Of a DNA stretch of 64,000 nucleotides, positions 2 through 17,057 are shown one piece after another. The number at the start of each line of letters is the position of its first letter. The stretch's first letter is position 1. The notes under the pieces were generated by a model. That model was not told the DNA's origin. It saw nothing but the letters and a program-made list of their open reading frames with translations, and did no database searches. The position numbers were made by a program, and so were the translations under genes. The stretch comes from an uncultured delta proteobacterium (GTDB lineage Bacteria > Myxococcota > Myxococcia > Myxococcales > Myxococcaceae), in assembly GCA_963776345.1 (NCBI GenBank), contig CAVZMH010000019.1, forward strand, positions 192,001 to 256,000, written 5' to 3'.

Positions 2-856
2 TCAGATCGGCTTCTTGAACCGATCATCGTCCAGGTCCGGGTTCACCACAACGCGGTCGATGACGATCTTCTCCGAGCCGGGCACGCCCTCGATCGTGGT
101 CTCCATCGAGTGCGGCACCATCAGCCCGTTCACCGGCTTGTAGTCGCGGAGGTAAGTCCACACCTGGCGCCGCTTGCCGTCGAAGCGTCGCGCACCGTCC
201 ACCTTGACGTCGAGGAAGGTCTCCTTGTCCACCCAGACCCGGCGGACGTCCTTGCCGGTGGTGAGCTTCAGCTTGTAGGCGTCGCGGCCGTCGACCTGCT
301 CGGTGCCCTCCAGCTCCACCCGGGTCCCCGCCGAGGAGGCCTCGATCAGCGGGCCGTCCAGCTCCGACTGCTGCGAGGCGATCCGCAGCTCCTCGGCGGT
401 GAACGGCTCGACCTCGTGCCGCCCGAGGAAGGGCCGCAGCTTCCAGCCCTTCTTTCCATCGTAGACCTGGACCGCCGTCTCGCCCTGGAACTGGACCTCC
501 ACCCGCATCTTCCCCGGGCGGGCCAGCTCCATCAGGAAGGGCAGCTGGATCTGCTTCTCGGGCTCGGAGCTGGCGCTCAGCGCGGCCTTTCGCATCTCGC
601 CCCGGGTCTGGGTCCGCTGCTTGAGGTAGTTCATCGCCAGCTTCACCGGGTCGCGGCGCTTGCCGGCGTCGAGGTTCCCGGAGAAGGACATGGCCTTCAC
701 TGCCTTCCAGGCCTTCAGCCCGCCGCGCGCAGCGACGTTCTTCTCCACGATGGGCGCGGCGGCCTTCTCCGCGGGGCTGTGGCAGCCCGCGGCGGCCAGG
801 GCCAGGAGCAGGGCCGCTCCCGGGAGGAGCGAGGGGGGGGACGACGCTCTCTTCAT
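2..856 (-). CDS. Outer-membrane lipoprotein-sorting (LolA-like) lipoprotein
   Basis: Lipobox LAAAGC. 'VAARGGLKAWKAVK' N-terminus and 'YLRDYKPVNGLMVPH...VVVNPDLDDDRF' C-terminus resemble LolA-like sorting proteins. ATG at 856 follows GAGGA (the ORF track starts at GTG 871). Confidence 0.65.
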   Translation of the reverse strand: MKRASSPPSLLPGAALLLALAAAGCHSPAEKAAAPIVEKNVAARGGLKAWKAVKAMSFSGNLDAGKRRDPVKLAMNYLKQRTQTRGEMRKAALSASSEPEKQIQLPFLMELARPGKMRVEVQFQGETAVQVYDGKKGWKLRPFLGRHEVEPFTAEELRIASQQSELDGPLIEASSAGTRVELEGTEQVDGRDAYKLKLTTGKDVRRVWVDKETFLDVKVDGARRFDGKRRQVWTYLRDYKPVNGLMVPHSMETTIEGVPGSEKIVIDRVVVNPDLDDDRFKKPI

Positions 857-893
857 CGGATGGTTCCTCACGGGACAGCGCTCGGGCGGGGCC

Positions 894-1433
894 CTAGTTC
901 ACCACCAGGCCCTCGACCCTCAGGTTGCCGGCGACCAGCGTCACCCGGCTGCCGCGCTTCACTAGCCGGCCGGGGTTGCCGAAGATCATGAAGTAGGTGC
1001 GGTTCTCCTCGAGCTGGGCGATCTGCCGGAGCTCGCCCACCTTCTCCATCGCCGGGATGGCCAGCGCGGTGCGGGTGGCCTCGTCGATCAGGTAGGGCCG
1101 GGTCCGCCGGTCGGTGAGGACCGCCGCCTTCTGCGGATCCACCACCCGGTAGTCGAAGCGGAGCATCAGGCCCGAGGACACCGGGTGGATGGCCACGATG
1201 TCGATGCCCCAGTTGCGCTTGATGGTCAGCCCGCGGCGGGCGTGGAAGTCCGCGCCCGACTCGTGCTCGGACGCGGTCGTCCGGGCGAGTCGCTTCCTCG
1301 CCGGCTTCGGGGCGGCGTGCGCCGGCGCCGCAGACGGGGCGTCCTCCGCGTGCGCCGGCAGCGCGAGGACGCCGCCCGCCAGGACCACGGCGAGCAGCGT
1401 CCCCGAGCGGCGCGGTGAGGTCGTGCCGCGCAT
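894..1433 (-). CDS. Exported hypothetical protein in the multicopper-oxidase operon
   Basis: 3' part of ORF 894..2327. ATG overlaps the stop of the giant gene (TGATG). Signal peptide ending ALPAHA, then a globular domain 'LMLRFDYRVVDPQKA...YFMIFGNPGRLVKRG'. Confidence 0.75.
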   Translation of the reverse strand: MRGTTSPRRSGTLLAVVLAGGVLALPAHAEDAPSAAPAHAAPKPARKRLARTTASEHESGADFHARRGLTIKRNWGIDIVAIHPVSSGLMLRFDYRVVDPQKAAVLTDRRTRPYLIDEATRTALAIPAMEKVGELRQIAQLEENRTYFMIFGNPGRLVKRGSRVTLVAGNLRVEGLVVN

Positions 1434-4400
1434 CACTGAGTGGTCGCCGCCAGGAACGGCTGCACCGGTCCGCTGATCCACTCGTCCGCGCCGATGTCGT
1501 ACCCGCCCCCGGACGGCCGCGTTTGGTTGTCGAAGTCGTGGTTCGGTGCGCCGGAGGCGGTCCCGGTGTTGATCGCCGAGGCGCCCGCGCCGAGGTGGTA
1601 GTTGCCGACCAGCGCTTTGGACGTGGGGTGCTCCACGAACAGCGGTCCGAACCGCATGTTCACGTAGTTGTTCCCCTCGTCCACGGTCGCGGCCACCTGC
1701 AGGTTGAGGACCGCGGGCGGGTTGACGACAGTTCCGAGCTCCACCACCGCCCGCGACCCGTTGCAGTACTGGGCCACCAGGCCGGGGCTGGTGGTCCGGA
1801 GTCCCGCGCCCGGGTAGCCGGTGCTGCTGGTGATGACCGAGAAGGTCGGGTTCAACCGACGCGCGCCGGGGTTGACGCTCGCGTCCGCGAGCACCCCGAG
1901 GTCCCAGTAGCGAGCGCCGCTGGGGCACTGGCCGGTCGCCGTCTGGTCCGGGAGCACGGTGCAGCCGGCGCCCGGGGCGGCCGCCGCCCGGCTGTTGCCG
2001 ACGCAGAGCTGCCCGTTGCCGGAGTAGAAGAACGACCGGTTCTGCCAGAGGATGTTGTTGCTCAGCGCCGTGGGCTGCGAGATGGCGTTGGCGTTCCGCT
2101 GGGCGTTGGTGGCGAGCTGGGCGAGGAGGGCAGCACTGGTGGGCTCGGAGACGATCCCCGCCGGGCTCGGGTAACCCCTCCCGGCCTGCCCCGGCGTGGT
2201 CCCGGGCAAGGTGACGCCACCGGCCACCACCACCCCGGCGATGCCGGCGCTGTCGTTGGAGGCGATGGTGTTGTTGATGATCGACGCGCGGAGCGTGTCG
2301 GCCATGGAGATGCCGCCGCCGGCCCATCCGGCCACGTTGTTGTCGATGATGTTGTTAGTCAGGGCGATGACGTGCCACCGGGCAGCGTTGTTCGGGAAGC
2401 CGGTCACGTCCTGCCCGTTCACCTGGCTGAGCCGGATGCCGCCGCCCTGGCCGCCCTCGGCGAAGTTGCCGCGGATGACGTTGGCGTCGACCGTCACGTC
2501 GCCGGTGCCCATGCTCACTGCGCCGGCGATGGGAGGCTCGCCCTCGATGGCGATGCCGCCGCCGTGGGTGGAGCTGGTCTGCTGGAAGCTCTGGTTGAAG
2601 AGGATCTGGTTGAAGGCGATCACCCCGCCCTGGCTGAAGCCGACGTGGCCGATGCCGCCGCCATCCGAGGAGCTGTAGTTCCCGCAGATGAAGTTGTGGT
2701 CGATGCTGTAGTGGTCGGTGCCGGCGCAGATCGAGAGGCCGCCACCGGCGCCGCCCGAGCCGGCGGGGGCCTCCACCGTGCCGTTCTTGGTGATGGAGTT
2801 GTGGTGGACGCGGACGTTCTCGTCGTAGGCGAGGCCGTTGATCCGCCCGCCGGTGAGCCCGCCGGGGAGGCCGTCGAGCTCGAGGAAGGGGACGCCCACC
2901 CGGATGCCGCCGTGGTACGCGCCGGCGTTGCCGTAGACGCGGTTGTTGGAGATCTCCAGCCCGTGGGCCCAGCCGTTGACGTAGATGCCACCGCCGGCGT
3001 CGCCGCCGGTGACGCTGATCCCGTCGATCCGTGACGAGGCGCAGCGGAAGTTGCTGGCTCTGATCCGGCTGCCGTAGGTGCTGTTGGGGCCGCCGTTGCC
3101 GTTGGCGTTGAGGCACTGGTTGGCCGGCAGGTCCTTGGCCAGCACCGCGATGCCCGGGCCCTCCTCGGTGCCGAGCACGCTCGGCTCGAGCAGCACCACG
3201 CCGCCGGTGATCTCCTGCGTGGGCAGCGGGTCGACCTGCGCCGTGCCGATCTGGTTCCCGGTGGTGGCGTCGATGCTGAACAGCGCGTTGATCTTTTGAC
3301 GCCAGCCAGCCAGCTTGCTGTTCGGGTACTTGGCCGCGTTGATGATGACCGACGAGGCCCCCACGCCTTGGAGCCGCACCGGCTTCCACATCACCACCAG
3401 CTCGTTGTAGGTGCCGGCGTCGATCAGGATGAGGTCACCCGGGCTGGCGGCCTCGATCGCCGCCTGGATGCTCTGTCCACTCGCCACGCGGGTCGGAGAG
3501 GTCAGGGTCGCGCGCTCGAGGGTCATCGTGACCGCGTCCACCGTGGAGCGTCCGGCCGCGGTGGTGACCACCAGCTCTCCGCTCGGCGTGCGAGGGGGCA
3601 CGGTCACGGTGATCGACTGATCGCTCCAGCTGGTGATGCCGCCGCTGATGTCGACGTCGCCGATCTTCACGGTGCCCTGGCCGCCGCCGAAGCCGTAGTG
3701 CCGGGTCAGTGTGCGCTGGCTGGCTGCGCCGGCCAGGGCGAACGGGCCGGAGTAGGCCGGGTTGATGACCTGCTGGTCTCCCTCGGCGGTGATGGTGAGC
3801 GTTCCGCCGGCCACCGGCAGGTAAGGGCCGAAGCCCGCGCTCGAGTCCACCCGCTTGATGACCGGGGCGTTGTCCGGCTGCGCGCAGTCCGGCGGGTTGT
3901 AGCCCGCGGCGAAGGCGGCGATGGGGAGCACCGGGGTGTCCAGGTACGTCGTCTGCCCCGGCATGAACGGGTTCGTGTAACAGAAGTTGCTGTACGAGGG
4001 GTTGTAGGCCGGGTCGGTGATCATCTTGACCTTCCCCGTCGCCGGGTCGATCGCTCCGGAAGGATCCGGGATCGGTCCCGGGTCGTTCATGCAGGTGATG
4101 AGCATGTTCGGCCCGTAGCCCGAGGGCGTCGGCGGGTTCACCAGCCAGCTCGAGGCCGTCAACATGTTGTACGCGCCCCACTGGTCGCTGTAGGTCCGAC
4201 TGATCTCCATCCCGCTGAAGTCCTTCACCGAGACCGGCACGAAGGGCACCGAGGCCTTCTCGCCGAAGTCCGGAGCGATGGCGTTGAACTCGCTCGAGGC
4301 GTCGTCGAGGATGATGCCGGTGTTGTTGGAGGCCACGGGCACCGGGGTGAAGACGAAGAAGTTGGCCGCGGTCTGCATCTGATCGTTCAGCACCACCCGC

Positions 4401-7400
4401 TTGCGGTCGCAGAGCGGCCGGTCCATCCCGGCGAACGGCGCGACTTGCTGCGCCTGCGGGAACACCGTCAGGAAGTCGGGCACCCGGTGCAGGTTGCCTG
4501 CACACTCCGGGAACTGGGTCGCCGTGGAGTTGGTGTAGATGCCGAGGTTGGTGGTCGGGTCGCTCTGGAACCCTTGATCACCCGTGTTCGGGTTGTAGGG
4601 GTTGGCGTTGTTGAGCGTGGCCTGGTCCGGGAGGATGAAGATGCTCCCCAGGGGGCCGAACTGCTGGGTGGCCGGGGCGTTGAACGCGTCGCCGATGAGG
4701 ATGTTCTTGTCCTCCTCCTTGACGATCTCGTAGCCCGGCGGCGTGACCGCCTCGACCACGTACGTCCCCGGAGGCAGACTCACCAGCGTCTTTCCGGCGG
4801 CCCTGTCCGTGGCGCTCAGCGGGTGGGCGTTGACGTACGCGGCGCTGGGGAAGGTGTAGCGGCCGTCGTAGGGGGCGGCCTGCACCTGGTTCCAGTTGTG
4901 GAAGCCGTCGTAGCAGCGCTGGCGGTCGTTCGGGCCCAGGGTGAAGTTGGTGAACGGATCGGTGGCCAGCTGTCCCGGGCACTGCATGTTGACCTGCCGG
5001 CCCGGCGGATAGGCGCCAGGGGACGCAAGCGCTCCGGTGGTCGGATTGCGCAGTTTGTTGTCCGGTCCGAGCAGGTACTGGTTGTTGTCCGCGCCGTAGA
5101 CCAGGTTGACCCAGTCGTCCCAGCTCGAGGTCTGGGTGCTGTCGACGAGGTGGAGGGTCTCGCTGCCGTCGGGGAGCGTCTTCTGCTCGTAGAGGTTCAC
5201 CGTGACCCGCGGAACGAGCGGCTCCCAGATGGTCTGCACGTTGAGCCGCTGGTCGTCGAAGGGGCGGGTGGACGAGTAGACCACCGTGCCGATGATGCCG
5301 CCGTTCTCGGTCGGCACGTACGGGGTGCGGCCCCAGTCCACCCGGTTCCGCTGGCTGATGAAGCTCTGCACGCCGTAGGAGAGCGCGCCCGGCGTCTCCA
5401 CCCGGACGCTCGACTCGCCGGTGGGGTAGGTCGATGTCCAGAGGAACTGCCCGATGCCGGAGGTGTCCGGCTTGCCGCCGCCGTCCACCCAGATGTGCAC
5501 GCCGGTCTGCTTGAACCGCGAGGTGTCGGCCTCGGCGACGTACCAGTTGAAGAGCGGGAAGAGCTCCACCAGGATGCCGTTTCCGGCGCTGTCGCTCAGC
5601 GTGGCGTTGGACGGCGCGCCGTTCCGGTAGCGCACGGTGAGCACCTCGTTGCTGATGCCCGGCTCGTCGGCGTCGTAGATGCCGTTCTTGTTCAGGTCCT
5701 GGTAGATGTTCTGGTCGTACTGGGTGAACCAGCTCAGGACCGGGATGTTCCCCATGTCCACTCTGTTCACCCCGGGGGGAACGGTGACCGCGACGTTCTG
5801 GATGATCTGGTCCAGCCACTGGTCGAACACCGCCAGGTCGTAGGTCCCCGCGGGGATGCCGGCGAGGGTGTAGTTGCCGTCCGGATCACACTGCGCGGCG
5901 GCGATCGCCGGCCCGGTCCCGCTCTGCGAGTTCAGGACCACCTGGCAGGTGGTGGAGAACAGGAGATCGTAGGAGCTGGAATCCCACAGCGTCACGTCCG
6001 AGGGATGGGACATGTGCTGGTTGGTGACCTTCCCCACGATGGTGGCGGGGCCGGTCAGCCGGTTGGCCGTGGCGTACGCCGCGACATGTCCGGGGTTCAC
6101 GAAGCCGATGGTGGTGTGGAAGCCCGGCGGGCCGAACTCCTGGAAGTACACCGGCTCGTTGATGCCCACGAAGGCGTCCTGGGCCGGGGTGCCCTCCAGC
6201 GTCTCGGTCTGCCACCAGACCTCCCCCGCCTCCTCGCGCGCCGCGGCCGGGTGGGCGATGACGTCGTAGCGGGCCGGGGTCAGGTTCTTGATCAGAGCGT
6301 GGCCGGCGAGCGCATACCGCGCGGGGTCGCCGTTGTAGCCCGGAGGGGCGTTGGGGCAGGTGTAGACCGCGCCGACCAGGTTCCCGTCCGCCGTGGTCTG
6401 GTTGCCGTTGGTCCTCCGGTTCAGCTCGTCCGGGCACCCCGGCGTCCCGAGCAGGGCGTTGGACAGCGGCATGTTGAACGCGTCGTAGGTCTGCTGGCCC
6501 GCCACGTCGCCGGTGCGGCCCGCCGGGTCCATGAGGATGATGTTGAAGCCCCCGAGGCCGTTCTCGTTGAGGTCGTTCTGGCCGTTGGTGGGGGCGTTGT
6601 CCTCGTAGATGTAGATGCTCAGCTGGGCGGGCTGGATGGGCGTCTTCTGGAGCTTGATGCTGACCGGGGCCCAGGTGCCGTTGGCCAGCGGTCTGATCTC
6701 CGCGCCGCCCATGATGTGGCCCGAGCCGTCGGCCGCGCAGACGGTCGAGGTGGTCGGATCGCAGCCGCCGGCCGGGTTGCCGGCGTCACCGGGCAGGATG
6801 GAGATGTAGTACCGCTTGCTCGCGTCCAGCGCGACGCGGTCCGGGCGGGTCTCGACGCTGGCAAGGTTGATGGTCACGGGCTGGCCGCGGACGGACTGAC
6901 CCGCGCCGCAGCTCACCGCGCCCACGCAGCCCGTGGCCACCACCGTCATGTGGCTCCGGTGGAAGCTGGTGCCGATGGTGCGGGTGCTGACGCTCGGGGT
7001 GACCGACTGCTCGCTCTTGAAGGTGAGGTCCTCCTGCAGCGTCCACCGGTAGTCGCCGATGGCCGTCCCGTCCGTGGCGTCGACCACCGAGACCGCGAGG
7101 TTGGAGGCCGCCGCGAAGTTGATGGTCACCAGGGCCGTGGAGGTGCTCTGCGTCCCCTGCGAGTTCACCGCGCGGTATCGGAAGTGGCACGAGGCGCCGC
7201 TCGCCGTCGCGCTGAACGAGCCATCCGGGTTGAGGGTGACTGCTGAACAGGTGCTCGCGCTGACCGCGCTCGCCGGGCAGGCGCCGGTGGAGTCCGCGAC
7301 GCAGGCGGTGAGCGTGTAGTTGCTGGGGTCGGTGTCGTTCGCCAGCACCCCCGGCCGCGCGGCGCTGAACTTTCCGGCGACGTTGCTGCTGAAGGTATCG

Positions 7401-9019
7401 GGGTTGGCGATGGGCGGCCCGCCCTTGGCGCCGACGATCAGGGTCACCGTCGCGGTCAGGGTGGACACTCCGTTGCCCACGTAGGTGAACTGGTCGGATC
7501 CGGTGTAGCCCTTGGTCGGGGTGTAGGTGAAGCGGCCGTCGGCGAGGAGGCTCAACGTGCCGTGGCTGACGTTGCCGGAGAGCGCGACCTTCGAGACCCC
7601 CACGTCGTTCGCCGTCACGTCACCGCTCTTGGAGCCGTTGTACGGGACGTTGAAGCTGTCGGAGTTGGCGGCGGCCGCGACCGCGGTGGGGAGGTTCCCG
7701 GGCGCGCCGGGCACCGGGACGGTGCTGGCCACCCCGCCGACGGTGACCTGCTGGGTCGGCGCCGCGGCGTGGTTCACCAGGATGAAGCCCTGCATGCCGC
7801 CGTTGGGATGATTGTCCGTGCTCAGGCTGAGCGACCGGTCGAAGACCGGATAGGTGCCGGACGCGTAGCTGCTGCCGCTGGCGCTGGCCGGCGGGCTCAT
7901 CAGCACATCCAGCGTCTTGCCCGCGGTGAGCAGGACCTCGCTCTGGGCCTTGGGGTTGCCGGGGGCGAGGTTCCCATCCTCCGCCACCAGCCTCATGCCC
8001 GGCGCGCCGACGATGGTCGGCACGTGGGTGCGCGAGCCCGTGTTCAGCAGGCGGACCAGCATGTTCCCCGAGCGGTACGCCGCAGTGTCGCCCAGCAGGT
8101 ACTGGGAGGCCTGCGGCGCGGTCCGGTCGAACGCCTGGCCGTTGATGAAGAAGTAGGTCGGCGTGTAGTTCACCGCCGCTGGGTACGCGGGGCGGCAGGA
8201 GCCGGGCGTACGGGCGCAGGTCGGGTCGTTGCGGAAGTTGAGGTCCGCCCCGGCGTTGGCTGCCGCATCCACCGCGGCGTTCTGCACCGGGTCCATCTCG
8301 CTCAGGAGCAGCGCGATCTCGTCGTCGTAGCTCACCCCCGGATACGCGGTGCCCGCCGCGGTGGCGGTGGGCGCGGTGGTGACCACCAGCACGCCGTAGA
8401 GGCCCATCGGGACCTCGAGCGAGGGCAGGGTGCCGGTCTCGTAGATGTACGTGCCCGGCTTGAGGTTGTTCCAGGTCAGCGTGGCAGTCGCCCCGGGTGC
8501 GACCTCCAGGCCGAACGAACGGACCCGCGGTCCCTGGGGCGGGGGCACGAAGGCAGGGCCGTCGGGCCGGACGTCGGCGTTCCCGGGGAAGGTGGTGAAG
8601 TTCTGCGCGTTGTGGACCGGCCCGGCCATCATGGTCGGCGTGCCGACGCCACCGCCGGCCTGGCCGAGGATGACCAGCGAGGTCGGCAGCTTGAGGTTGT
8701 TGGTCAGGTTGATGGAGAGGTCGTCTCCGGCGGCGGCCACGAGGGTCGGCCCCGGCGCCCAGCTGCCTCCGGAGACGCAGCCGGTGGACCCGGTCTGGCA
8801 GAAGCCCCACATCGGCGAGGCCGTCCCGTCGCGGAGCACGGTGGTCATCCGCTGGGCGGTCAGGTTCACCGTCTTGCTGAGGCCCTGGGTGATGCGTCCG
8901 GAGTTGGCGTTGGCCGCGCTCGATGGCGCGCGTCCGTTTCCGGTGCAGGCGGTGGCGGCGGCCAGCAGGACGCCGAGCGCGGCCGGCAGGCGAAGGCTCT
9001 GTGAGTGGCGGAGGTGCAC
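1433..9019 (-). CDS. Giant (~2,530 aa) lipoprotein: ligand-less cupredoxin pair, Ig/cadherin-like repeats, IPT-like domain, beta-helix, C-terminal choice-of-anchor-Q-like motif
   Basis: Long ORF with typical codon usage. GTG at 9019 follows GAGGAG (alternative ATG 9061). Lipobox LAAATAC. MCO-like 'PGPTLVAAAGDDLSINLTN' and 'GTYIYETG...MGLYG'. Ig-like 'DGRFTYTPTKGYTGSDQFTY'. Gly-rich beta-helix repeats. C-terminal 'NYHLGAGASAINTG...YDIGADE'. Confidence 0.85.
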   Translation of the reverse strand: MHLRHSQSLRLPAALGVLLAAATACTGNGRAPSSAANANSGRITQGLSKTVNLTAQRMTTVLRDGTASPMWGFCQTGSTGCVSGGSWAPGPTLVAAAGDDLSINLTNNLKLPTSLVILGQAGGGVGTPTMMAGPVHNAQNFTTFPGNADVRPDGPAFVPPPQGPRVRSFGLEVAPGATATLTWNNLKPGTYIYETGTLPSLEVPMGLYGVLVVTTAPTATAAGTAYPGVSYDDEIALLLSEMDPVQNAAVDAAANAGADLNFRNDPTCARTPGSCRPAYPAAVNYTPTYFFINGQAFDRTAPQASQYLLGDTAAYRSGNMLVRLLNTGSRTHVPTIVGAPGMRLVAEDGNLAPGNPKAQSEVLLTAGKTLDVLMSPPASASGSSYASGTYPVFDRSLSLSTDNHPNGGMQGFILVNHAAAPTQQVTVGGVASTVPVPGAPGNLPTAVAAAANSDSFNVPYNGSKSGDVTANDVGVSKVALSGNVSHGTLSLLADGRFTYTPTKGYTGSDQFTYVGNGVSTLTATVTLIVGAKGGPPIANPDTFSSNVAGKFSAARPGVLANDTDPSNYTLTACVADSTGACPASAVSASTCSAVTLNPDGSFSATASGASCHFRYRAVNSQGTQSTSTALVTINFAAASNLAVSVVDATDGTAIGDYRWTLQEDLTFKSEQSVTPSVSTRTIGTSFHRSHMTVVATGCVGAVSCGAGQSVRGQPVTINLASVETRPDRVALDASKRYYISILPGDAGNPAGGCDPTTSTVCAADGSGHIMGGAEIRPLANGTWAPVSIKLQKTPIQPAQLSIYIYEDNAPTNGQNDLNENGLGGFNIILMDPAGRTGDVAGQQTYDAFNMPLSNALLGTPGCPDELNRRTNGNQTTADGNLVGAVYTCPNAPPGYNGDPARYALAGHALIKNLTPARYDVIAHPAAAREEAGEVWWQTETLEGTPAQDAFVGINEPVYFQEFGPPGFHTTIGFVNPGHVAAYATANRLTGPATIVGKVTNQHMSHPSDVTLWDSSSYDLLFSTTCQVVLNSQSGTGPAIAAAQCDPDGNYTLAGIPAGTYDLAVFDQWLDQIIQNVAVTVPPGVNRVDMGNIPVLSWFTQYDQNIYQDLNKNGIYDADEPGISNEVLTVRYRNGAPSNATLSDSAGNGILVELFPLFNWYVAEADTSRFKQTGVHIWVDGGGKPDTSGIGQFLWTSTYPTGESSVRVETPGALSYGVQSFISQRNRVDWGRTPYVPTENGGIIGTVVYSSTRPFDDQRLNVQTIWEPLVPRVTVNLYEQKTLPDGSETLHLVDSTQTSSWDDWVNLVYGADNNQYLLGPDNKLRNPTTGALASPGAYPPGRQVNMQCPGQLATDPFTNFTLGPNDRQRCYDGFHNWNQVQAAPYDGRYTFPSAAYVNAHPLSATDRAAGKTLVSLPPGTYVVEAVTPPGYEIVKEEDKNILIGDAFNAPATQQFGPLGSIFILPDQATLNNANPYNPNTGDQGFQSDPTTNLGIYTNSTATQFPECAGNLHRVPDFLTVFPQAQQVAPFAGMDRPLCDRKRVVLNDQMQTAANFFVFTPVPVASNNTGIILDDASSEFNAIAPDFGEKASVPFVPVSVKDFSGMEISRTYSDQWGAYNMLTASSWLVNPPTPSGYGPNMLITCMNDPGPIPDPSGAIDPATGKVKMITDPAYNPSYSNFCYTNPFMPGQTTYLDTPVLPIAAFAAGYNPPDCAQPDNAPVIKRVDSSAGFGPYLPVAGGTLTITAEGDQQVINPAYSGPFALAGAASQRTLTRHYGFGGGQGTVKIGDVDISGGITSWSDQSITVTVPPRTPSGELVVTTAAGRSTVDAVTMTLERATLTSPTRVASGQSIQAAIEAASPGDLILIDAGTYNELVVMWKPVRLQGVGASSVIINAAKYPNSKLAGWRQKINALFSIDATTGNQIGTAQVDPLPTQEITGGVVLLEPSVLGTEEGPGIAVLAKDLPANQCLNANGNGGPNSTYGSRIRASNFRCASSRIDGISVTGGDAGGGIYVNGWAHGLEISNNRVYGNAGAYHGGIRVGVPFLELDGLPGGLTGGRINGLAYDENVRVHHNSITKNGTVEAPAGSGGAGGGLSICAGTDHYSIDHNFICGNYSSSDGGGIGHVGFSQGGVIAFNQILFNQSFQQTSSTHGGGIAIEGEPPIAGAVSMGTGDVTVDANVIRGNFAEGGQGGGIRLSQVNGQDVTGFPNNAARWHVIALTNNIIDNNVAGWAGGGISMADTLRASIINNTIASNDSAGIAGVVVAGGVTLPGTTPGQAGRGYPSPAGIVSEPTSAALLAQLATNAQRNANAISQPTALSNNILWQNRSFFYSGNGQLCVGNSRAAAAPGAGCTVLPDQTATGQCPSGARYWDLGVLADASVNPGARRLNPTFSVITSSTGYPGAGLRTTSPGLVAQYCNGSRAVVELGTVVNPPAVLNLQVAATVDEGNNYVNMRFGPLFVEHPTSKALVGNYHLGAGASAINTGTASGAPNHDFDNQTRPSGGGYDIGADEWISGPVQPFLAATTQ

Positions 9020-9047
9020 GGGATTCTCCTCGATCGTCCTGCGCGGC

Positions 9048-10529
9048 TCAGAGGGATTCATCGATGAACCAGGTCGGAGGATCGACGAGCAGCATCGTCA
9101 TGATCCCGCCGGGGAAGACGTCGTTGGTCGTGATCTCGCGCTCGTTGTGCGAGTGCCACATGTACGCGTAGCCAGCCTCGGGGTTCTGGTTGAGCGTCCC
9201 CGGCGGCTCGTTGGTGGTCGTGAAGCCCGAGCCCGCGGGCTGGAGCCCGAGGTAGGGCGTGCCGCCGTACCACTGGCCGATGGCCACGATGTTCGGGTCG
9301 GGCGGGGTGACCGGGATGGGCTTGTTGTGGTCCTGGCACCACTCACCGAAGTTGGGATCCGTCCGGACCGAGTGGTAGCCGTTCGCGTCCGGGGTGCAGG
9401 CGGTGCCGTCGCCCGGGTGGTGGTTGTAGACGTCCCAGTTCAGGCCCTTGCCGGTCCAGGTGAAGATCTGGTCCTGGGTCTGACCGGAGACGGTGGGGGT
9501 GGTGAAGAGCAGCGGGCCGGCGAGCGCGGTGGGGTCCGTGGCGCTGAGCAGGAGATTGCCGTCGCGGGCCAGCACTCGGGCGTGGTTGCCGTGGAAGTGG
9601 TACGGGTGCTGCCACCGCCCCTGCCCGGCGATGCGCATCAGCACCAGCTCGCCCGGGTGCATGTGGGGATTGCAGTTGTAGGGCTGGTGCAGGTACCCGG
9701 GGGCGTAGGCGGTGTCCATGTCGTCCGGGAGCGACCGCCCGTTCAGCAGGTAGTAGTTGGGCCGGTAGGGCTCGGTCTGCACCCGGATCTCCGGGCAGGG
9801 GCCGGTGGGGCAGGCCTTCACCTGCGCCAGCACCCGGTCGTGGATCCTCGAGTCGAGCTCGCTGATCTGGAAGAGGTACTCGCGGTCGTAGCAGGAGGAG
9901 GGATGGTCATACGCCGCGGTGGAGAGCGCGAAGGCGGAGGTCCTCACGCAGCTCGCCGGGGGTGACTTGGGAAGGACGATGATCACCCCGAAGAGCCCCA
10001 TCTCGATCTGCAGATCGGCCTGCGTCCCGCTGTAGTAGGCGTGCGTTCCGGGCGTGGTGGCGACGAAGGAGTAGGTCACGGTGCTTCCGGGCACCGCCTC
10101 CTGCGTGTACGCCCCGGAGACCCCGCCGGTGGTGGTCACCGTGAAGCCCGGGAAGACGATGGAGGTGTTCCCCGCCGCGGCCGGAAGGCTGTTCCTCAAC
10201 CGCACGGTGACCGTGTCCCCCTCGGTGACGATCATCGTGGGGCCGGGCATCTGCATCTGGGGGCAAACCGGCGCCGGCCCAGTGCTGCCCTGCACCTGCC
10301 CGGGGCGGAACCCCGCCGGTGCGCCGTCGCAGCCGTAGCCCCAGGAGTAGATGGAGTTGCCGTCGGGCTGGCTCACGTACTCGGCGCTGGCCACCAGGGA
10401 GAAGCTCGGCCCGCTGATGCCGTGCACCGCGGCCTGCGCGGGCCGGATCGACGCCCAGGCCGCGATGGCGGCCAGCGCGAAGAGCGCTGCGGATGAGGTG
10501 CTGCGGAGGATCCTCGTCAGTCGAGTCAT
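9048..10529 (-). CDS. Secreted two-domain multicopper-oxidase-family protein (subunit B; Cu ligands only in domain 2)
   Basis: Signal peptide. 'MPGPTMIVTEGDTVTVRLRN'. Domain 2 has HPYHFHG and YMWHSH. Domain-1 motifs are degenerate (TSIVFPG, YYSGT). Confidence 0.85.
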   Translation of the reverse strand: MTRLTRILRSTSSAALFALAAIAAWASIRPAQAAVHGISGPSFSLVASAEYVSQPDGNSIYSWGYGCDGAPAGFRPGQVQGSTGPAPVCPQMQMPGPTMIVTEGDTVTVRLRNSLPAAAGNTSIVFPGFTVTTTGGVSGAYTQEAVPGSTVTYSFVATTPGTHAYYSGTQADLQIEMGLFGVIIVLPKSPPASCVRTSAFALSTAAYDHPSSCYDREYLFQISELDSRIHDRVLAQVKACPTGPCPEIRVQTEPYRPNYYLLNGRSLPDDMDTAYAPGYLHQPYNCNPHMHPGELVLMRIAGQGRWQHPYHFHGNHARVLARDGNLLLSATDPTALAGPLLFTTPTVSGQTQDQIFTWTGKGLNWDVYNHHPGDGTACTPDANGYHSVRTDPNFGEWCQDHNKPIPVTPPDPNIVAIGQWYGGTPYLGLQPAGSGFTTTNEPPGTLNQNPEAGYAYMWHSHNEREITTNDVFPGGIMTMLLVDPPTWFIDESL

Positions 10530-10548
10530 CGGCTCGGTCTCCCCTCGT

Positions 10549-12009
10549 CTACTGGACGCGGATCTCGGTCATCATGCCGCCGAAGTTCTCGGCGTCATTC
10601 GACAGGTGGTCGAGGTTGGTCGCGTAAAGAAAATAGGTTCCGGACGCGACACCGTTCGCGTCGAGGATCACGTCGAGGGATTCGCCTCCGCCGAGCGTGA
10701 TCGAGTTGGTGTTGTAATAGAGATTGTTTCCAGCCATGTCCCGGAGCAGGCGCGCGTTCAGGGCGATCACCGTCATGGGAATGCCGATGGTCCCCAGGGT
10801 GGTGTGCTCGGTCACGCTCAGGTCCGAGATGCGGAGGAGCGCCCGGCCGTTGGTGGGGATGGTGATGATGCTCGGCAGCGGCTGGGCGGGGCGCGACACC
10901 CCGTCCGCGGAGAGCGTGTCGATCACGCCCGGATTGACCGTGTCCGGATACCCACGGCCATTCAGCAAGAAATACTTGTCCTTCATGTCGGCGAAGGCCT
11001 CCGGATTGAAGGTCATGCCGACGTAGTGAAAGTTGGGATCGAACCCCATCATCTGGATGGGGTACTCGACGTCGTAGCGGGTCGAGCCGTCGCCGTCGTT
11101 GTAGGCGTAGTTGGCGCCGCCGGTGACGGAGTTGGCCGCCGGCGCCGGGGTCTGGCCGGTGCAGAGGATGTCCGAGCACCGCAGCCCGTCCCAGGCGGCC
11201 TGGTCGGCCGCGCCGTTCGGGCGGGCCGCGCGCTTGTTGGCGGCGATCAGCGCGTCACGAACGAGGTCGCTGCGCCTCAGCCGGCTCTGGCGGGGCCGCA
11301 CGTAGAGCTGGCCCACCATGCCCATCTGGAGATGTTCGGGCGGGGTGATGTGGCAGTGCCAGAAGTAGGTCCCGGCCTCGGGCGCCGTGTAGTAGTAGGT
11401 GAAGCTCCCGCCGATGTTGATGGCGATCGACGCGTCCGGCACGCCGTCGAAGAACGATGAGGCGTTGGGGTACCCGTGGAAGTGGACGGTGTGCTGCTCG
11501 AAGAGGTCCGGGCGCATGATCATCCCGGGGTTGCTGAGGGTGAGGAAGAACTCGTCGTCCTCGTCGATGGCCATCATCGGCGCCGGCGCGTTCGCCGCCA
11601 GCACGCCCATGTCCATGATCCCCGCGGGCTCGGTGATCGCGCCGTCGTTCGGGTTGTCCCGGACGTTGGGCCCCTGCACCGTGGAGTAGTTGGGCCCGGT
11701 GTACGGGGTGTTGAAGACCCGCGCCGTCTGGGTCCCCGGGAGCCCGTCCTCGATGTCCCGGAGGCCCGAGAGCGGGCTGAAGCCGAAGAGGTAGATCTGC
11801 GTGCCGTCGCCCATGGTGGCGTAGCCGTCCCCGCCGCCGATGTGCTGGCACTTGATGACCCCGGGATGGTCGGGGTCGCGCGTGCTGCCGTTGGGGTGGA
11901 GGTCCGTCTGGGTCGGGCACTGGACCCGGAAGGACTGGGCGCTCGCCGGCACGGCCGCCAGCAGCACCCACATCGCAAGAAGCGACGACGTTCGATTCAC
12001 GTTTCGCAT
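10549..12009 (-). CDS. Secreted two-domain multicopper-oxidase-family protein (subunit A; T1 and half-TNC ligands in domain 1)
   Basis: Signal peptide ending ASA. Domain 1 has HTVHFHG and WHCHITPPEHLQMGM. Domain-2 motifs are degenerate. GAGGAG RBS upstream. Confidence 0.87.
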   Translation of the reverse strand: MRNVNRTSSLLAMWVLLAAVPASAQSFRVQCPTQTDLHPNGSTRDPDHPGVIKCQHIGGGDGYATMGDGTQIYLFGFSPLSGLRDIEDGLPGTQTARVFNTPYTGPNYSTVQGPNVRDNPNDGAITEPAGIMDMGVLAANAPAPMMAIDEDDEFFLTLSNPGMIMRPDLFEQHTVHFHGYPNASSFFDGVPDASIAINIGGSFTYYYTAPEAGTYFWHCHITPPEHLQMGMVGQLYVRPRQSRLRRSDLVRDALIAANKRAARPNGAADQAAWDGLRCSDILCTGQTPAPAANSVTGGANYAYNDGDGSTRYDVEYPIQMMGFDPNFHYVGMTFNPEAFADMKDKYFLLNGRGYPDTVNPGVIDTLSADGVSRPAQPLPSIITIPTNGRALLRISDLSVTEHTTLGTIGIPMTVIALNARLLRDMAGNNLYYNTNSITLGGGESLDVILDANGVASGTYFLYATNLDHLSNDAENFGGMMTEIRVQ

Positions 12010-12581: not shown

Positions 12582-14198
12582 TCAGGGCAGCGCGATGCGG
12601 CCCGGCGCGCCCGACGCGCCCTGCAGCGTGTGGCAGGTGTTGCAGTCGCCGCTGCTCACCGCGCCGGACATGATCCGCGTGCCGCCGTCGAAGGTGATCT
12701 GCGCGCGGATGGGGAACACCGGCCAGCTTCCGCTCGCCTGCCCGTAGAAGTTGCCCGCCTGGTTGACGGTGAACGACCGGGTCACGCCGTTGTTGTCGGT
12801 GATCGACACCCGGGCGTTCTGCGCGGCGCGGCCGTAGCAGTCGTTGTACTCGTGCCCGGTGGGGTAGGCGGTGCCGGCGATGGCAAAGGTGGGCGCCTCG
12901 CCTCCGGTCGTCTGGTGGCACGCGATGCAGGCCAGACCCGGGTGCATGTTCGAGCTGCCCTCGTCACCCCGCGTCCAGTAGGTGTTGCTGGTGCAGGTGG
13001 GCGGTCCGGAGAACACCGGATCCGGAGTTCCGGCGTCCACCGTGCAGGTCCCGGGCTGCATCCCGGCGCTCACCCAGGCGGAGAACGCGCTCTGCTTGGC
13101 GGCGGCCACCGGCGCCGCGGGCAGCGGCGGCATGGGGCTGGTGGTGCTGGCCATGCGCTGCACGCAGGCCTGGCCGTTGGTGACCGCGGGGTTGCTCGGC
13201 GACGAGGCGCGGAGCTGCGACAGCGAGGTCAGCGCCATCGGGGCGCTGCCGGTGGGTGGATTCCCGTGGCAGCTGGTGCAGGAGCTGGTGAGCACGTCGG
13301 CCACGTCGCACGGCAGGTCTCCGCTCACGCCCGCGTCCGATGGCCCGGCGTCCACGCCGCCATCGCCGAGCGGCGGCGGTCCGGCGTCCACCGGCGTGGT
13401 GCAGCTGCCCGCGGGCATGCCGCCCGACACCCAGGTCGAGAACTCGGTCGCCGCGGCCGCCGGAACCCCGGCGTAGGGGGAGGGAGGCATGGGGCTGGTG
13501 CTGCTGGTCATCCGCGTGACCGACCGCTGGCCCTCGGTCTGGGTCGGATAGGTGGGCGAGGTGGCCCGCAGCGCTGCCAGCGAGTTGAGCGACATCGGCG
13601 CGCTGTTGCTCGGAGGCGACCCGTGGCAGCCGGTGCAGTACGTCCCGAGCGTCTGGGCGACGCCGCAGGGCAGGTCGTTGCTCACGCCTGCGTCGGTCGG
13701 GCCGGCGTCGACGCCTCCGTCCCCGAGCGGCGGCGGTCCCGCATCGCCGGATGGCGCGATGCAGCTGCCCGCGGGCATGCCCGCGTTGATCCAGGTGGAG
13801 AAGGTGGAGATCTGCGTGGATGTCGCCCGGGCGTACGGCGCAGGGGGCATCGGCGAGGTGGAGCTCTGGATGCGCTCCAGCGCCAGCGCCCCGTTGCTCT
13901 TCGAGGGCTGCGAGTACGAGGGCGCCTTCAGCGCGGCGAGGCTGTCCAGCCGGTTGGGCGCCCCGTTCATCGGGACCGGCCCGTGGCAGAGGAGACAGTC
14001 GGCCCCGAGGAAGCCCGCGACGTCGCACGGGAGGTCGGTCGGGGTCTGCACCGGGCCTGCGTCGCCACCCGTGCCGACGGTCGGCGGACCGCCGGACGTC
14101 GGGCCCTGAGCGACCTCGCCGGAGTAAGTCCCGAAGCTGCACGCACCCATCGCCCCGATGGCGAGGACGACCGGGACCAACCAGCGCGCGCGACCCAT
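12582..14198 (-). CDS. Multihaem (5 CxxCH) c-type cytochrome lipoprotein with three repeated mono-haem domains
   Basis: Lipobox AMGAC. Motifs CLLCH, CTGCH, CTSCH, CIACH, CNTCH. ATG at 14198 lies within ORF 12582..14585. Confidence 0.85.
   Translation of the reverse strand: MGRARWLVPVVLAIGAMGACSFGTYSGEVAQGPTSGGPPTVGTGGDAGPVQTPTDLPCDVAGFLGADCLLCHGPVPMNGAPNRLDSLAALKAPSYSQPSKSNGALALERIQSSTSPMPPAPYARATSTQISTFSTWINAGMPAGSCIAPSGDAGPPPLGDGGVDAGPTDAGVSNDLPCGVAQTLGTYCTGCHGSPPSNSAPMSLNSLAALRATSPTYPTQTEGQRSVTRMTSSTSPMPPSPYAGVPAAAATEFSTWVSGGMPAGSCTTPVDAGPPPLGDGGVDAGPSDAGVSGDLPCDVADVLTSSCTSCHGNPPTGSAPMALTSLSQLRASSPSNPAVTNGQACVQRMASTTSPMPPLPAAPVAAAKQSAFSAWVSAGMQPGTCTVDAGTPDPVFSGPPTCTSNTYWTRGDEGSSNMHPGLACIACHQTTGGEAPTFAIAGTAYPTGHEYNDCYGRAAQNARVSITDNNGVTRSFTVNQAGNFYGQASGSWPVFPIRAQITFDGGTRIMSGAVSSGDCNTCHTLQGASGAPGRIALP
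13030..14040 (-). repeat. Three tandem ~360-bp intragenic repeats (cytochrome c domain plus DAG linker)
   Basis: 'DLPCxVA...CxxCHG...SPMPP...W..GM..G.C' recurs at ~14040, ~13680 and ~13320. DNA 'gcagctgcccgcgggcatgcc' occurs at 13401 and 13761. Confidence 0.8.
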
Positions 14199-14686: not shown

Positions 14687-15802
14687 ATGCACGCGCTCCT
14701 CGCCCCGAGCACCCGGTGGCCGCTGGCCAGGCTCACCACCCGGAAGGTGGGGCGGGCGCGGGTCCTCCTCGGCAGCAGGCCCGCCCTGGTGGCCGAGCTC
14801 GACGCGCTCCGGAGCGCCGCCGTCCGCGCGATGTCCGCCGCGCTCGGCGCCGAGGTCCAGCTGGCCGCCCGGATGGCGGACACGCCCGTCGCGTCCTCCC
14901 GTGCGCTCGGGCACACCGCGCTCCTCTGTCTCCTCGCGCTGGGCGGCCCAGGGGCGGAGGCCGTGCTGGAGCTGGATCCGCGACTCGCCGCAGCCCTCGC
15001 CGCGCAGCGCGCCGGTGGGGCCGGGCCCGACGCTCCGGTGCTCGCGGTCACCCGCTTCGAGCGCGCGCTCCTGGCCGAGCTGCTGCTCACCGTGCTCGCG
15101 GCGCTCCGCGAGCTCGGAGCGGCCGAGTCGCGCTGGCGGCCGCGCCTGCTCGAGGTGGGGGCCGGTCGGGCGGAGGCCGAGCGGCGCCTCGGCCCGGGTC
15201 GCTGCCTGGTGGTGGAGCTCGGGCTGGAGACCGCCGCGGTGCACGGCCGGGCCGTCCTCCTCCTCCCCGAGCTCGCGCTGAGGGCCGTCGCGCTCGCCCT
15301 TCCACCTCGGCGCGCCCGGCCCGGCCCGGGGCCCGGGCACGCCCGGCTTTCCTTCTCGCCGCGCGTTCGCTGCGGCTCCGTCTGGCCGCAGGAGCTCGCC
15401 CGGCTCGTCCCGGGGGCGGCGGTGGTGCTCCCCGGCGCGCGGCTCGTGGACGGAGTGCTGCACGGACCCGTGGCGCTCGTGCGGCCCGGAGTGTCGCTCG
15501 CCGGAGCGCTCGCCGCCGACGGCCTTCGCCATTCCGGCGCGGAGCTGCACGCGCCTTCCCCGGAGGTCACGCACGTGGATCCTGCACTGTCCGAGCTGCC
15601 GGTCGAGCTGGAGGTGGAGCTCGCCCGCGTCCCCCTGTCGCTCTCCGAGGTCGGCGCCCTGCAGCCGGGCGCGGTGCTGCCCCTCCGGGTGAGCGCTGGC
15701 GACCCGGTCTTCCTCCGCGCCGGAGACCGCCGCATCGCCCGGGCCGAGCTGGTGGACGTGGAGGGCGAGGTCGCCGCCCGCATCCTGGAGCTCGTTCCAT
15801 GA
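14687..15802 (+). CDS. FliM/FliN (SctQ-like) C-ring/sorting-platform protein
   Basis: C-terminal SpoA domain 'LSELPVELEVELARVPLSLSEVGALQPGAVL...ARAELVDVEGEVAARI'. First gene of the export operon. Start uncertain. Confidence 0.75.
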   Translation: MHALLAPSTRWPLARLTTRKVGRARVLLGSRPALVAELDALRSAAVRAMSAALGAEVQLAARMADTPVASSRALGHTALLCLLALGGPGAEAVLELDPRLAAALAAQRAGGAGPDAPVLAVTRFERALLAELLLTVLAALRELGAAESRWRPRLLEVGAGRAEAERRLGPGRCLVVELGLETAAVHGRAVLLLPELALRAVALALPPRRARPGPGPGHARLSFSPRVRCGSVWPQELARLVPGAAVVLPGARLVDGVLHGPVALVRPGVSLAGALAADGLRHSGAELHAPSPEVTHVDPALSELPVELEVELARVPLSLSEVGALQPGAVLPLRVSAGDPVFLRAGDRRIARAELVDVEGEVAARILELVP

Positions 15803-16110
15803 GCCTTGCCCCGTTCGTCCGTCGTCCCGTCGAGCTGCTCGCCCCGCTGGGAGGCGCGATGCTGGTGCTGCTGGTCCTCGGCCCGGGCCTCCGCGGCGCC
15901 GCGGGCGCGGTGCTCGCCGCCGCCGCCGCGGTCGCGGTCAGGCTCCTGCCGCGCCCGGCTGCCGCCGCGGAGGCGCGCCCAATCCGGGTGATCGACCGGC
16001 TGCAGCTCGGGCCGCGCCTCTCGGTGGTCCTCGTGGAGACCGCCGGCCGCCGCTACCTGGTTACCAGCGGGGCGACCGTCACCCCGCTCCCGCCGGAGGA
16101 CCGGCCGTGA
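15799..16110 (+). CDS. fliO: FliO-like protein
   Basis: ATGA overlap with the upstream gene. Hydrophobic N-terminus, then 'IRVIDRLQLGPRLSVVLVETAGRRYLV'. Confidence 0.7.
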   Translation: MSLAPFVRRPVELLAPLGGAMLVLLVLGPGLRGAAGAVLAAAAAVAVRLLPRPAAAAEARPIRVIDRLQLGPRLSVVLVETAGRRYLVTSGATVTPLPPEDRP

Positions 16111-16794
16111 ACGGATCGCTCGGCTCTCCTCGCAGGGCCGGTCACGCTCCCCGAGGCGGGGGCGAACCCGGTGGGCCTGCTGCTCCTGCTCGCGGGGATG
16201 AGCCTGCTCCCGTTCCTCCTGGTGATGTTCACCAGCTTCACCAAGATCAGCGTCGTCCTCTCCCTCACCCGCTCGGCACTGGGCACCCAGCAGGCGCCGC
16301 CGACCATGGTGCTGACCGGGCTCGCCGCCGTGCTCTCGCTGGTGGTGATGGGCCCGGTGGGGGAGGCGATGCTGTCCCGGGTCGACGCGGGGAAGCTGCC
16401 CTCCGCGCCCGGGCCGGAGATGCTCCGCGCCGTCTCCCGTGCCGCCGAGCCGCTGCGGGCCTTCTTGCTCGAGCACGGTAGCCCGGAGCTCCGCGCCGAG
16501 TTCGCGGGGCTCGCGCGCGAGCTGCGCGGCGGCGCCGAGGTGTCCGAGACCGACCTCGGGGTGGTGGCGCCGGCCTTCGTGCTCTCCGAGCTGAAGCAGG
16601 CCTTCCAGATCGGCTTCCTGGTCTTCCTCCCCTTCCTGGTGGTGGACATGGTGGTGGCCAACGTGCTGCTCGCCCTGGGGATGCAGTCGCTGTCCCCGTC
16701 GCAGGTGAGCCTGCCGTTCAAGGTCCTCCTCTTCGTCGCCGTGGACGGCTGGGCGCTCCTGGCGCGCAGCCTCGTGCAGGGGTATCGGGCATGA
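16107..16794 (+). CDS. fliP: Type III export gate FliP/SctR (probable 1-nt frameshift near 16122; in-frame part from 16171)
   Basis: 'FTSFTKISVVLSLTRSALGTQQAPP', 'PAFVLSELKQAFQIGF', 'SLPFKVLLFVAVDGW'. The GTGA-coupled start at 16107 is one base out of frame. Confidence 0.88.
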
Positions 16795-17057
16795 GCACCG
16801 AGGCGCTCCTCACGGTGGGCCGCGAGGCGCTGGTGCTGATGGTCCTCGCCTCCATGCCTCCGGTGCTCGCCGGGCTGGTGGCGGGCGTCACCATGGGCCT
16901 GCTCCAGGCGGTGACCCAGGTGCAAGAGGCGACGCTCTCGGTCGTCCCGCGGCTATGTGCGGCGCTGCTCGCGCTGGCGGTGGCCTTTCCGTGGATCGGC
17001 GGGCAGCTCCTCCGCTTCACCGCGGCGCTCTTCCAGGCGGTGGGGTCGGTCCGGTGA
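16791..17057 (+). CDS. fliQ: Type III export gate FliQ/SctS
   Basis: 88 aa. 'GLLQAVTQVQEATLSVVPRL'. Confidence 0.9.
   Translation: MSTEALLTVGREALVLMVLASMPPVLAGLVAGVTMGLLQAVTQVQEATLSVVPRLCAALLALAVAFPWIGGQLLRFTAALFQAVGSVR

Follow-up and report, generated by a model that had tools for sequence, protein, structure and literature searches.

To our knowledge, the multicopper oxidases (MCOs) described so far are either single chains or homotrimers. In the two-domain enzymes of this group, each chain places its domain 2 against domain 1 of the following chain. The ligands of their copper cluster are contributed by two protomers (PMC13151041; PMC11761707). The alpha-alpha-alpha' 'heterotrimer' of Nmar_1354 consists of one gene product with and without a pendant domain (PMC11761707). 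MnxG-like proteins possess six domains, one type 1 (T1) copper site and one trinuclear cluster, which sits between domains 2 and 3 (PMC3600357). Ceruloplasmin and hephaestin are also six-domain single chains with one trinuclear cluster, folded into a pseudo-threefold ring, but they carry three T1 sites (domains 2, 4, and 6) and their cluster lies between domains 1 and 6 (PMC3600357). Here, we analysed a stretch of 64,000 nucleotides (the window) from an uncultured member of the Myxococcaceae (assembly GCA_963776345.1, contig CAVZMH010000019.1, positions 192,001 to 256,000). Close to its start are three consecutive genes for cupredoxin proteins, A, B, and C, between which the ligands of a single copper centre are divided. 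They represent a strongly conserved and apparently undescribed variant of MCOs. We consider it likely that their products form a secreted ring in the order C-B-A, which would contain one T1 site, one trinuclear cluster and approximately four copper ions, reduce O2, and be mounted on an adhesin-like body. No report of a split or heterotrimeric MCO was found in the open-access literature, which does not prove its absence from print.

Subunits and their copper ligands

Subunit A is encoded at positions 10549..12009 of the window (486 aa) and subunit B at 9048..10529 (493 aa). The third pair of cupredoxin domains, the C module (7766..8896), corresponds approximately to residues 56-432 of a giant protein of 2542 aa (1433..9061). 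All these features are on the minus strand. A preliminary description of this DNA, made from the sequence letters, had proposed that each of the three genes encodes a pair of cupredoxin domains. Our examination bore this out: the open reading frames (ORFs) and all twelve motifs are in place, and Pfam recognizes Cu-oxidase domains in all of A, B, and C. The three ORFs display coding-type G+C contents at third codon positions (0.93-0.95), and N-terminal signal-like peptides could be read by eye in each product. The C module does form the N-terminus of the giant protein, as had been claimed, but the start of translation is probably elsewhere than assumed, at a GTG codon at position 9019, which is preceded by GAGGAG.

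For both A and B, the closest solved structure by sequence is the two-domain blue copper oxidase 3g5w. The ligand registers were taken from alignment to this structure and from profile alignments among the A, B, and C families. Domain 1 of A contains the motif HTVHFHG (11473..11493, minus strand), with H173 as a T1 ligand and H176 and H178 as type 2 (T2) and type 3 (T3) ligands, respectively, and the HCH...H...M motif (11317..11358, minus strand), with H218, C219, H220, H226, and the axial M231. It therefore holds a complete T1 site (H173, C219, H226, and M231) and four cluster histidines (H176, H178, H218, and H220). The corresponding cluster positions in domain 2 of A are taken by G406, I408, Y462, and T464, none of which is a cluster ligand. 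This domain is degenerate, as first described; the histidine of its HTTLGTIG segment, however, is not at a motif position, since H402 precedes the motif by one residue; it is kept in only 9 of 83 sequences.

Subunit B is the reverse of A. The cluster positions of its domain 1 are occupied by V125, P127, Y166, and G168, without any ligand. Domain 2 contributes H311 and H313 of the motif HPYHFHG (9588..9608, minus strand) and H459 and H461 of the motif WHSH (9147..9158, minus strand). H308 of the former motif occupies a vestigial T1 position, and S460 stands in place of the T1 cysteine. The C module has no copper ligands in either domain. Thus, as initially proposed, no chain has the full ligand set: four histidines and T1 in domain 1 of A, four histidines in domain 2 of B, and none in C. 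Judged from these residues, the cluster is buildable only from domain 1 of A and domain 2 of B, which sum up to one T1 site, eight histidines and the His-Cys-His link. A homotrimer of A, B, or C alone would be unable to complete it.

Comparison of family profiles with hhalign gave E-values of 1e-49 (A-B), 8e-64 (B-C), and 8e-37 (A-C). Mutual similarity among the three exceeds that of the A and B profiles to their best PDB matches, 3g5w and 2zwn. A, B, and the C module are best explained as paralogues, each a cupredoxin subunit with two domains. An MCO that could complement them was not found elsewhere in the source genome by tblastn and a motif scan.

In common with the type-C two-domain MCOs (3g5w, 2zwn, and Nmar_1354/9cck), the three subunits have two cupredoxin domains per chain, an N-terminal T1 site (in A only), and a 4+4 split of cluster ligands between domains 1 and 2. 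In type-C enzymes, however, all ligands are present in each chain and the trimer has three sites, while in the present system every chain lacks ligands, and one site would be made from the products of three genes. By the count of cluster histidines per chain, none of the three subunits is a type-C enzyme, which has all eight (four in domain 1 of A, four in domain 2 of B, and none in C). The MnxG-type proteins are similar in having six cupredoxin domains, a single T1 site and a single cluster, in being extracellular, and in the presence of SCO and accessory genes nearby (PMC3600357; PMC13689576). They differ in that a single chain is involved and T1 belongs to an even domain (domain 2), as opposed to three polypeptides with T1 in an odd one, domain 1 of A; in place of their MnxE/F partners, the cluster studied here has the giant adhesin-like body. 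Accordingly, the single T1 site and the single cluster of the MnxG type would be found here only over three subunits, while the one-chain design and the T1 site in domain 2 are missing. The division into three polypeptides and the position of T1 in an odd domain argue for descent from type-C enzymes, independent of MnxG. By its three genes and single T1 site, the cluster is not a member of the ceruloplasmin family. The preliminary description had likened the predicted assembly to a ceruloplasmin-like six-domain ring; the likeness to a ring with one cluster would hold, but with its one T1 site and one cluster the MnxG type is the better analogue.

Copper nitrite reductases (NirK) have a mononuclear T2 site with a catalytic Asp and lack the T3 histidine pair. 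In A, the HxHxH and HCH motifs are complete, and the model TIGR02376 scored 31 and 50 bits against a cut-off of 296. By its ligands, A is not a NirK-type reductase.

A further conserved feature, an E-x-D-x-x-x-H-like segment, was observed at the start of domain 2. In A it includes H328 (131 of 133 rows); in B, E224, D226, and H230 (the latter in 104 of 110 rows); and in C, E255 and D257 (D257 in 100 of 100 rows). This segment (A H328, B H230, C D257) could be a candidate site for a substrate metal or for calcium.

Conservation of the ligand division

At least 7,999 relatives of A (protein clusters) were recovered among 8,000 scored candidates. The loci fetched for comparison comprised 80 genome loci (the best of 577), 80 metagenome loci (the best of 519, obtained with a distant-relative profile), and 39 further genome regions. 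These provided 139 scoreable A+B+C triplets, which are related and partly redundant, and so not independent. All four cluster histidines of domain 1 of A were present in 137 of the 139 triplets and the T1 cysteine in each of them; the four cluster histidines of domain 2 of B were present in 136. Domain 2 of A, domain 1 of B and both domains of C had at most one histidine at the cluster positions and never the T1 cysteine. The reciprocal loss of ligands, which the preliminary description had proposed to test in homologous clusters, is conserved in them. The five exceptions (L105, L110, L178, L204, and L219) derive from ORFs that are frameshifted, contain stop codons or are truncated. The division was kept in named records from Myxococcales, Burkholderiales, Gallionellaceae, and Acidobacteria, as well as in a distant metagenomic subfamily and in the class of genome G409.

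The T1 residues of A (H173, C219, H226, and M231) were kept in 133 of 133 aligned rows. Similarly, H311, H313, H459, and H461 of B were invariant (110/110 rows), while its vestigial T1 histidine H308 was a histidine in only 66 of these rows and the T1-cysteine position was Ser or Asn across homologues. Free drift of the T1 histidine of B beside four invariant cluster histidines is what one would expect under selection for a trinuclear cluster to which both subunits contribute.

These data bear on the notion that A, B, and C are decaying paralogues or pseudo-enzymes without a joint function, to which the frameshifts in some loci might point. We regard it as hardly credible. The ligands are invariant in sequences with identities down to approximately 35%, a pattern fixed over 139 triplets is not that of chance or decay, A-like proteins are numerous, as noted above, and the corresponding proteins of Sideroxydans lithotrophicus ES-1 were detected and co-induced.

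Two features of individual subfamilies should be mentioned. Many A proteins of the distant subfamily have twin-arginine-like leaders, as read by eye. A large actinobacterial subfamily of B (P0299-P0409), with Micromonospora, Dactylosporangium, Actinoplanes, and Kribbella among the source names, carries a C-terminal tail of about 250 residues.

Gene linkage and fusions

A was present in 177 of 179 loci (L022-L200). B followed directly in all 149 loci with at least 700 nt downstream of A, and B and then C in all 112 loci with at least 3,200 nt downstream. With B as the starting point, 22 of 401 genomes from a different class (that of G409) gave matches, and 20 of 21 strong places were fetched; A lay upstream in all 19 places with sufficient room and C downstream in all 20. 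The absence of A and B homologues apart from each other, on which the first proposal depended, is thus supported from both sides. Among 401 genomes of the window's own phylum, A was matched in 24, B in 24, and both in 22. In three of the four genomes with a single match, the partner was present but frameshifted. An intact cluster of A, B, C, and body occurs in Cupriavidus metallidurans CH34, a laboratory strain. The acidobacterial genome G411, from which locus L088 was taken, contains five separate A-B pairs, and several other Acidobacteria records have two or three loci each.

The arrangement of C and of the body of the giant protein varies with the clade. The clade of the window has C and the giant body in one protein. 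In other clades, the body has a gene of its own in front of A, and C either stands alone or is joined to other tails; where the body lies elsewhere, C occurs as a free gene of approximately 340-390 aa (L024 and L181). Fusion of the body to the N-terminus of A was seen in 28 of 150 listed representatives, and fusion of B to C via a linker of approximately 165-455 aa in 9 of 120 long B hits. Two more apparent B-C fusions, P0278 and P0279, were dropped as probable frameshift read-throughs. None of the 120 long B hits had a T1 motif. Neither a six-domain protein nor an A-B fusion was found among these hits and the listed representatives of at least 400 aa, although this negative is weak evidence. 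The connection of A, B, C, and body by fusions is as expected of one complex.

It might be argued that the oxidase consists of A and B only, either as a ring (A2B or AB2) or as an open dimer, and that the C pair lies outside it and serves for docking or adhesion. The ligands indeed require A and B alone, and C is the most variable of the three, with different tails in different clades. This is nevertheless unlikely, given the presence of C after A-B in every locus with room for it and in every B-first locus, its retention as a free gene in L024 and L181, and its fusion to B in nine clusters; furthermore, an A2B ring would leave an unsatisfied half-site of four histidines. That C occurs both on its own and in fusions with either B or the body suggests that it is a real third partner.

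Predicted ring and its orientation

We therefore return to a ring of all three subunits. Since contacts in two-domain oxidases run from domain 2 of a chain to domain 1 of the following one, and the ligands lie in domain 2 of B and domain 1 of A, the order in the ring would be C-B-A, the reverse of the gene order A-B-C. A, B, and the C module would assemble into one pseudo-threefold ring with all eight histidines of the T2/T3 trinuclear cluster at the interface between domain 2 of B and domain 1 of A. The T1 copper in domain 1 of A would receive electrons from the substrate and transfer them over the H218-C219-H220 bridge to the cluster, where O2 would be reduced to water. Such a ring would bind about four copper ions rather than 12. 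The interface between domain 2 of A and domain 1 of C and that between domain 2 of C and domain 1 of B would be copper-free and structural. The ring would be exported, copper loading would probably be assisted by the SCO protein of the operon, and the giant adhesin-like body would keep the ring on the surface of the cell, or attached to a solid or matrix. The reversal of gene order relative to ring order may explain why the B-C fusions seen all have long linkers and why a six-domain fusion was not seen, the latter being a weak negative. The lack of a T1 motif in the 120 long B hits would, tentatively, also fit such a reversal.

An opposite ring may also be considered, in which domain 2 of A would meet domain 1 of B, domain 2 of B domain 1 of C, and domain 2 of C domain 1 of A. 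The half-sites of four histidines would then be paired with E208 and D408 of C to give two non-canonical metal sites, for instance for nitrogen-oxide chemistry. Both acidic residues occupy T3-His positions and are kept in 86 of 100 rows each. Covariation was calculated from 140 triplets (the 139 and that of the window; ~93 effective sequences) as mutual information with average product correction, and scored as the fraction of loop pairs with Z>2.5. The predicted ring gave 0.042 (A2/C1), 0.045 (C2/B1), and 0.021 (B2/A1), and the opposite ring 0.060 (B2/C1), 0.023 (A2/B1), and 0.018 (C2/A1), over a background of approximately 0.02. Although the B2/C1 block is the highest, a ranking from ~93 effective sequences is within noise, and the invariant histidine interface is not scoreable by this approach. 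The 4+4 complementarity of histidines is exactly that of the known cluster, and the B-C fusions have long linkers instead of the short link expected of an adjacent domain 2 of B and domain 1 of C. The opposite ring is thus highly improbable.

At the copper-free interfaces of the predicted C-B-A ring, the former T3-His positions hold conserved Tyr or carboxylate residues (A Y462, C E208, C D408, and B Y/E166). In C, residues E208, H346, and D408 are mostly conserved.

If true, an obligate ring of three gene products with one site would be a new way of building an MCO, and would offer a present-day parallel for the transition from homotrimers to six-domain oxidases. It would also change annotation, as thousands of 'multicopper oxidase' proteins would be inactive alone and would be missed by single-gene expression or screening.

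The related cluster of Sideroxydans lithotrophicus ES-1

The preliminary description knew of no characterised example. This stands for the enzyme but not for the cluster, which is in print with expression data (Keffer et al., 2025, Applied and Environmental Microbiology; PMC12016527). Genes Slit_1812-1818 of S. lithotrophicus ES-1 encode three cupredoxin proteins together with SCO, a cytochrome and small proteins. The operon is the same as that in the window: it encodes two cupredoxins of approximately 515-520 aa and a motif-less protein of 2873 aa, in which adhesin and lyase-like domains are present, as well as SCO, a cytochrome, a LolA-like protein and a small protein. A and B are orthologues of Slit_1818 and Slit_1817, respectively, and the giant protein is the orthologue of Slit_1816. 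A Slit_1818 peptide of 16 residues listed in Table S3 of that study is identical to residues 469-484 of A, and 16 positions of a 19-residue Slit_1817 peptide match B. Peptides of Slit_1816 and Slit_1815 match C and the small secreted protein D; all these matches were made by eye. Since the peptides cover the ligand-free domain 2 motifs of A and the first histidine motif of domain 2 of B, the split is partly visible in published data. The authors attributed 'canonical multicopper oxidase motifs' to Slit_1817 and Slit_1818, and the accessible part of the article mentions neither half-sites nor a complex (PMC12016527). Similar clusters were named by them in Paraburkholderia, Ralstonia, Anaeromyxobacter, and Steroidobacteraceae (PMC12016527).

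The proteins of the Slit cluster were more common in late magnetite than in late Fe-citrate cultures, and the protein with the strongest differential expression was Slit_1816 (PMC12016527). Induction on fresh magnetite versus Fe-citrate, in log2 units, was +7.7 for C, +5.5 for B, and +3.5 for A (PMC12016527). According to our model, these magnetite-induced cupredoxins would belong to a single enzyme that depends on the presence of all three.

Given the ring, a metal ion or mineral surface, with Fe(II) or Mn(II) as the electron donor, would have close to an even chance of being the substrate; this estimate is based on the induction in Sideroxydans and on a context of SCO and secretin genes in common with the Mn oxidases of Pseudomonas. 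SCO genes occur in 17 fetched loci and a secretin near the cluster in 10, which recalls the SCO genes and the dedicated type II secretion system of those oxidases. Phenolic or matrix organics are a less likely though reasonable candidate, and Cu(I) or nitrogen compounds would account for the remainder. A link to manganese in Acidobacteria AB60 was looked for in the literature and not found. The cytochrome-MCO operon of Thioclava was rejected as a match, as it has one MCO gene and a different layout.

Several observations weigh against the three-subunit ring or against its metal substrate. An oxidase that reduces O2 would not conserve energy, and most of the named carriers are not iron oxidizers by name. 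One genome (G041) contains C and a part of B, cut by the contig start, but no match to A. Summed intensity-based absolute quantification values in ES-1 are approximately 1.0:1:1.1 for C:B:D but 0.08 for A, which makes A ~12-fold scarcer if the columns are identified as we infer. Late percentiles on fresh magnetite are likewise 79.3 (C) and 74.8 (B) versus 29.5 (A; Table 1 in PMC12016527). Peptide coverage of A and B is only 15%, so that the low abundance of A is a soft result. Finally, the induction was late-phase only, with day 14 compared with day 7 (PMC12016527); surface attachment or starvation could explain it, and a role in iron oxidation is not proved by it.

The scarcity of A would fit a system that is not an oxidase. 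A would then serve in electron transfer by its T1 site, in sub-stoichiometric amounts, and B and C would make up an abundant scaffold on the surface, with a patch of four histidines for the binding or trafficking of copper or another metal; the electrons would go to the cytochrome c of the operon. A cytochrome c-binding-protein gene is present in 17 fetched loci and in this operon, and a role in electron uptake was discussed by Keffer et al. (PMC12016527). We find this improbable: the presence of the cytochrome cluster in only 17 loci speaks against it, and the retention of exactly complementary 4+4 histidines, among them the two on either side of the T1 cysteine of A, while the T1 histidine of B is lost freely, is hard to explain without a shared cluster.

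A wider interpretation of the C-B-A ring is offered tentatively and is rather more doubtful than the ring itself. The genes would represent a widespread, undescribed class of obligately heterotrimeric MCOs, which arose by triplication of a type-C gene and division of its ligands, and which reached the single-site six-domain design known from MnxG and ceruloplasmin without fusion, perhaps since the gene order reverses the ring order. Mounted on an adhesin-like body of ~2,000 residues, it would be a surface enzyme of soil, peat, and wetland bacteria oxidizing Fe(II) or Mn(II) on minerals, and this would explain the most strongly magnetite-induced protein of S. lithotrophicus ES-1.

The giant protein

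Downstream of the C module, the giant secreted protein comprises Big_9/cadherin-like Ig spacer domains (7211..7675, minus strand; Pfam), the body (3782..7123, minus strand), IPT/TIG domains, and a right-handed beta-helix with a C-terminal choice-of-anchor-Q segment (1472..3481, minus strand; Pfam), in which D2013, C2126, R2210, and D2255 are conserved. A lipobox-like Cys was noticed by eye at residue 39. Folding of the body from single sequence gave a predicted local distance difference test (pLDDT) value of 31, and an alignment-based model (pLDDT 88, predicted template modelling score 0.89) was used instead. In this model, the body is a compact cluster of beta-sandwiches of the CnaB/prealbumin type. 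Its best fold matches are the B domains of SdrD and pilins, with template modelling (TM) scores for the whole model of at most 0.12; a whole-structure match was not found in the fold comparison. A search of PDB sequences with the beta-helix/choice-of-anchor-Q region gave no match.

The body has conserved Asp/Glu and Cys residues. No histidine conserved in at least 85% of the alignment rows was found in the body or the beta-helix, which speaks against copper binding by these regions. Retention of acidic residues and Cys without conserved His suggests that they act as scaffold and adhesin and do not provide another site for copper.

Operon neighbours and genomic setting

Downstream of the giant gene lie the genes for the small secreted protein D (894..1430, minus strand), an orthologue of Slit_1815 with no Pfam family and with relatives in 45 fetched loci, and for a Slit_1814-like periplasmic protein related to LolA (2..871, minus strand). 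The operon continues just outside the window with an SCO1/SenC gene (L201:15364-15993) and a cytochrome c-binding-protein gene, which is a fusion (L201:13739-15375). Upstream of A, no match to a sigma-70 promoter or a terminator was found.

In betaproteobacterial loci (L046, L096, and related ones; approximately 10 loci), genes for a secretin, pseudopilin-like proteins and a lytic transglycosylase were observed upstream of A; these genes suggest a dedicated secretion system. In 26 loci, the majority of them from the distant subfamily (including L105-L110, L113, and L116), the operon has a gene for a subtilase (S8) with Big_9 domains in its vicinity.

A c-type cytochrome with five CxxCH motifs, Pro/Gly-rich and built of repeats, is encoded upstream of A (12582..14141, minus strand). 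It lies beside A in no other fetched locus and is, therefore, probably not part of the system. Its paralogues were detected on contigs C16 and C18.

The oxidase operon and this cytochrome gene together form an insertion of ~16.9 kb, which extends from approximately -2350 to 14584 of the window (G000:C19 ~189650-206584). It splits a type-III-like export locus between sctJ-like and sctQ/R-like genes. The export genes for FliN-C, FliP, export-family-1, and FHIPEP proteins are located on one side (14687-20885, plus strand), and the YscJ/FliF partner of the export apparatus is located beyond the insertion (L201:12462-13100). In four genomes of the same genus, the site is empty, with a gap of 0.24-1.3 kb, and A was matched in none of 12 same-genus genomes. 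The closest named homologues of A are proteins from Anaeromyxobacter and other Myxococcales (~70-76%). Taken together, these observations fit a recent horizontal gain of the cluster.

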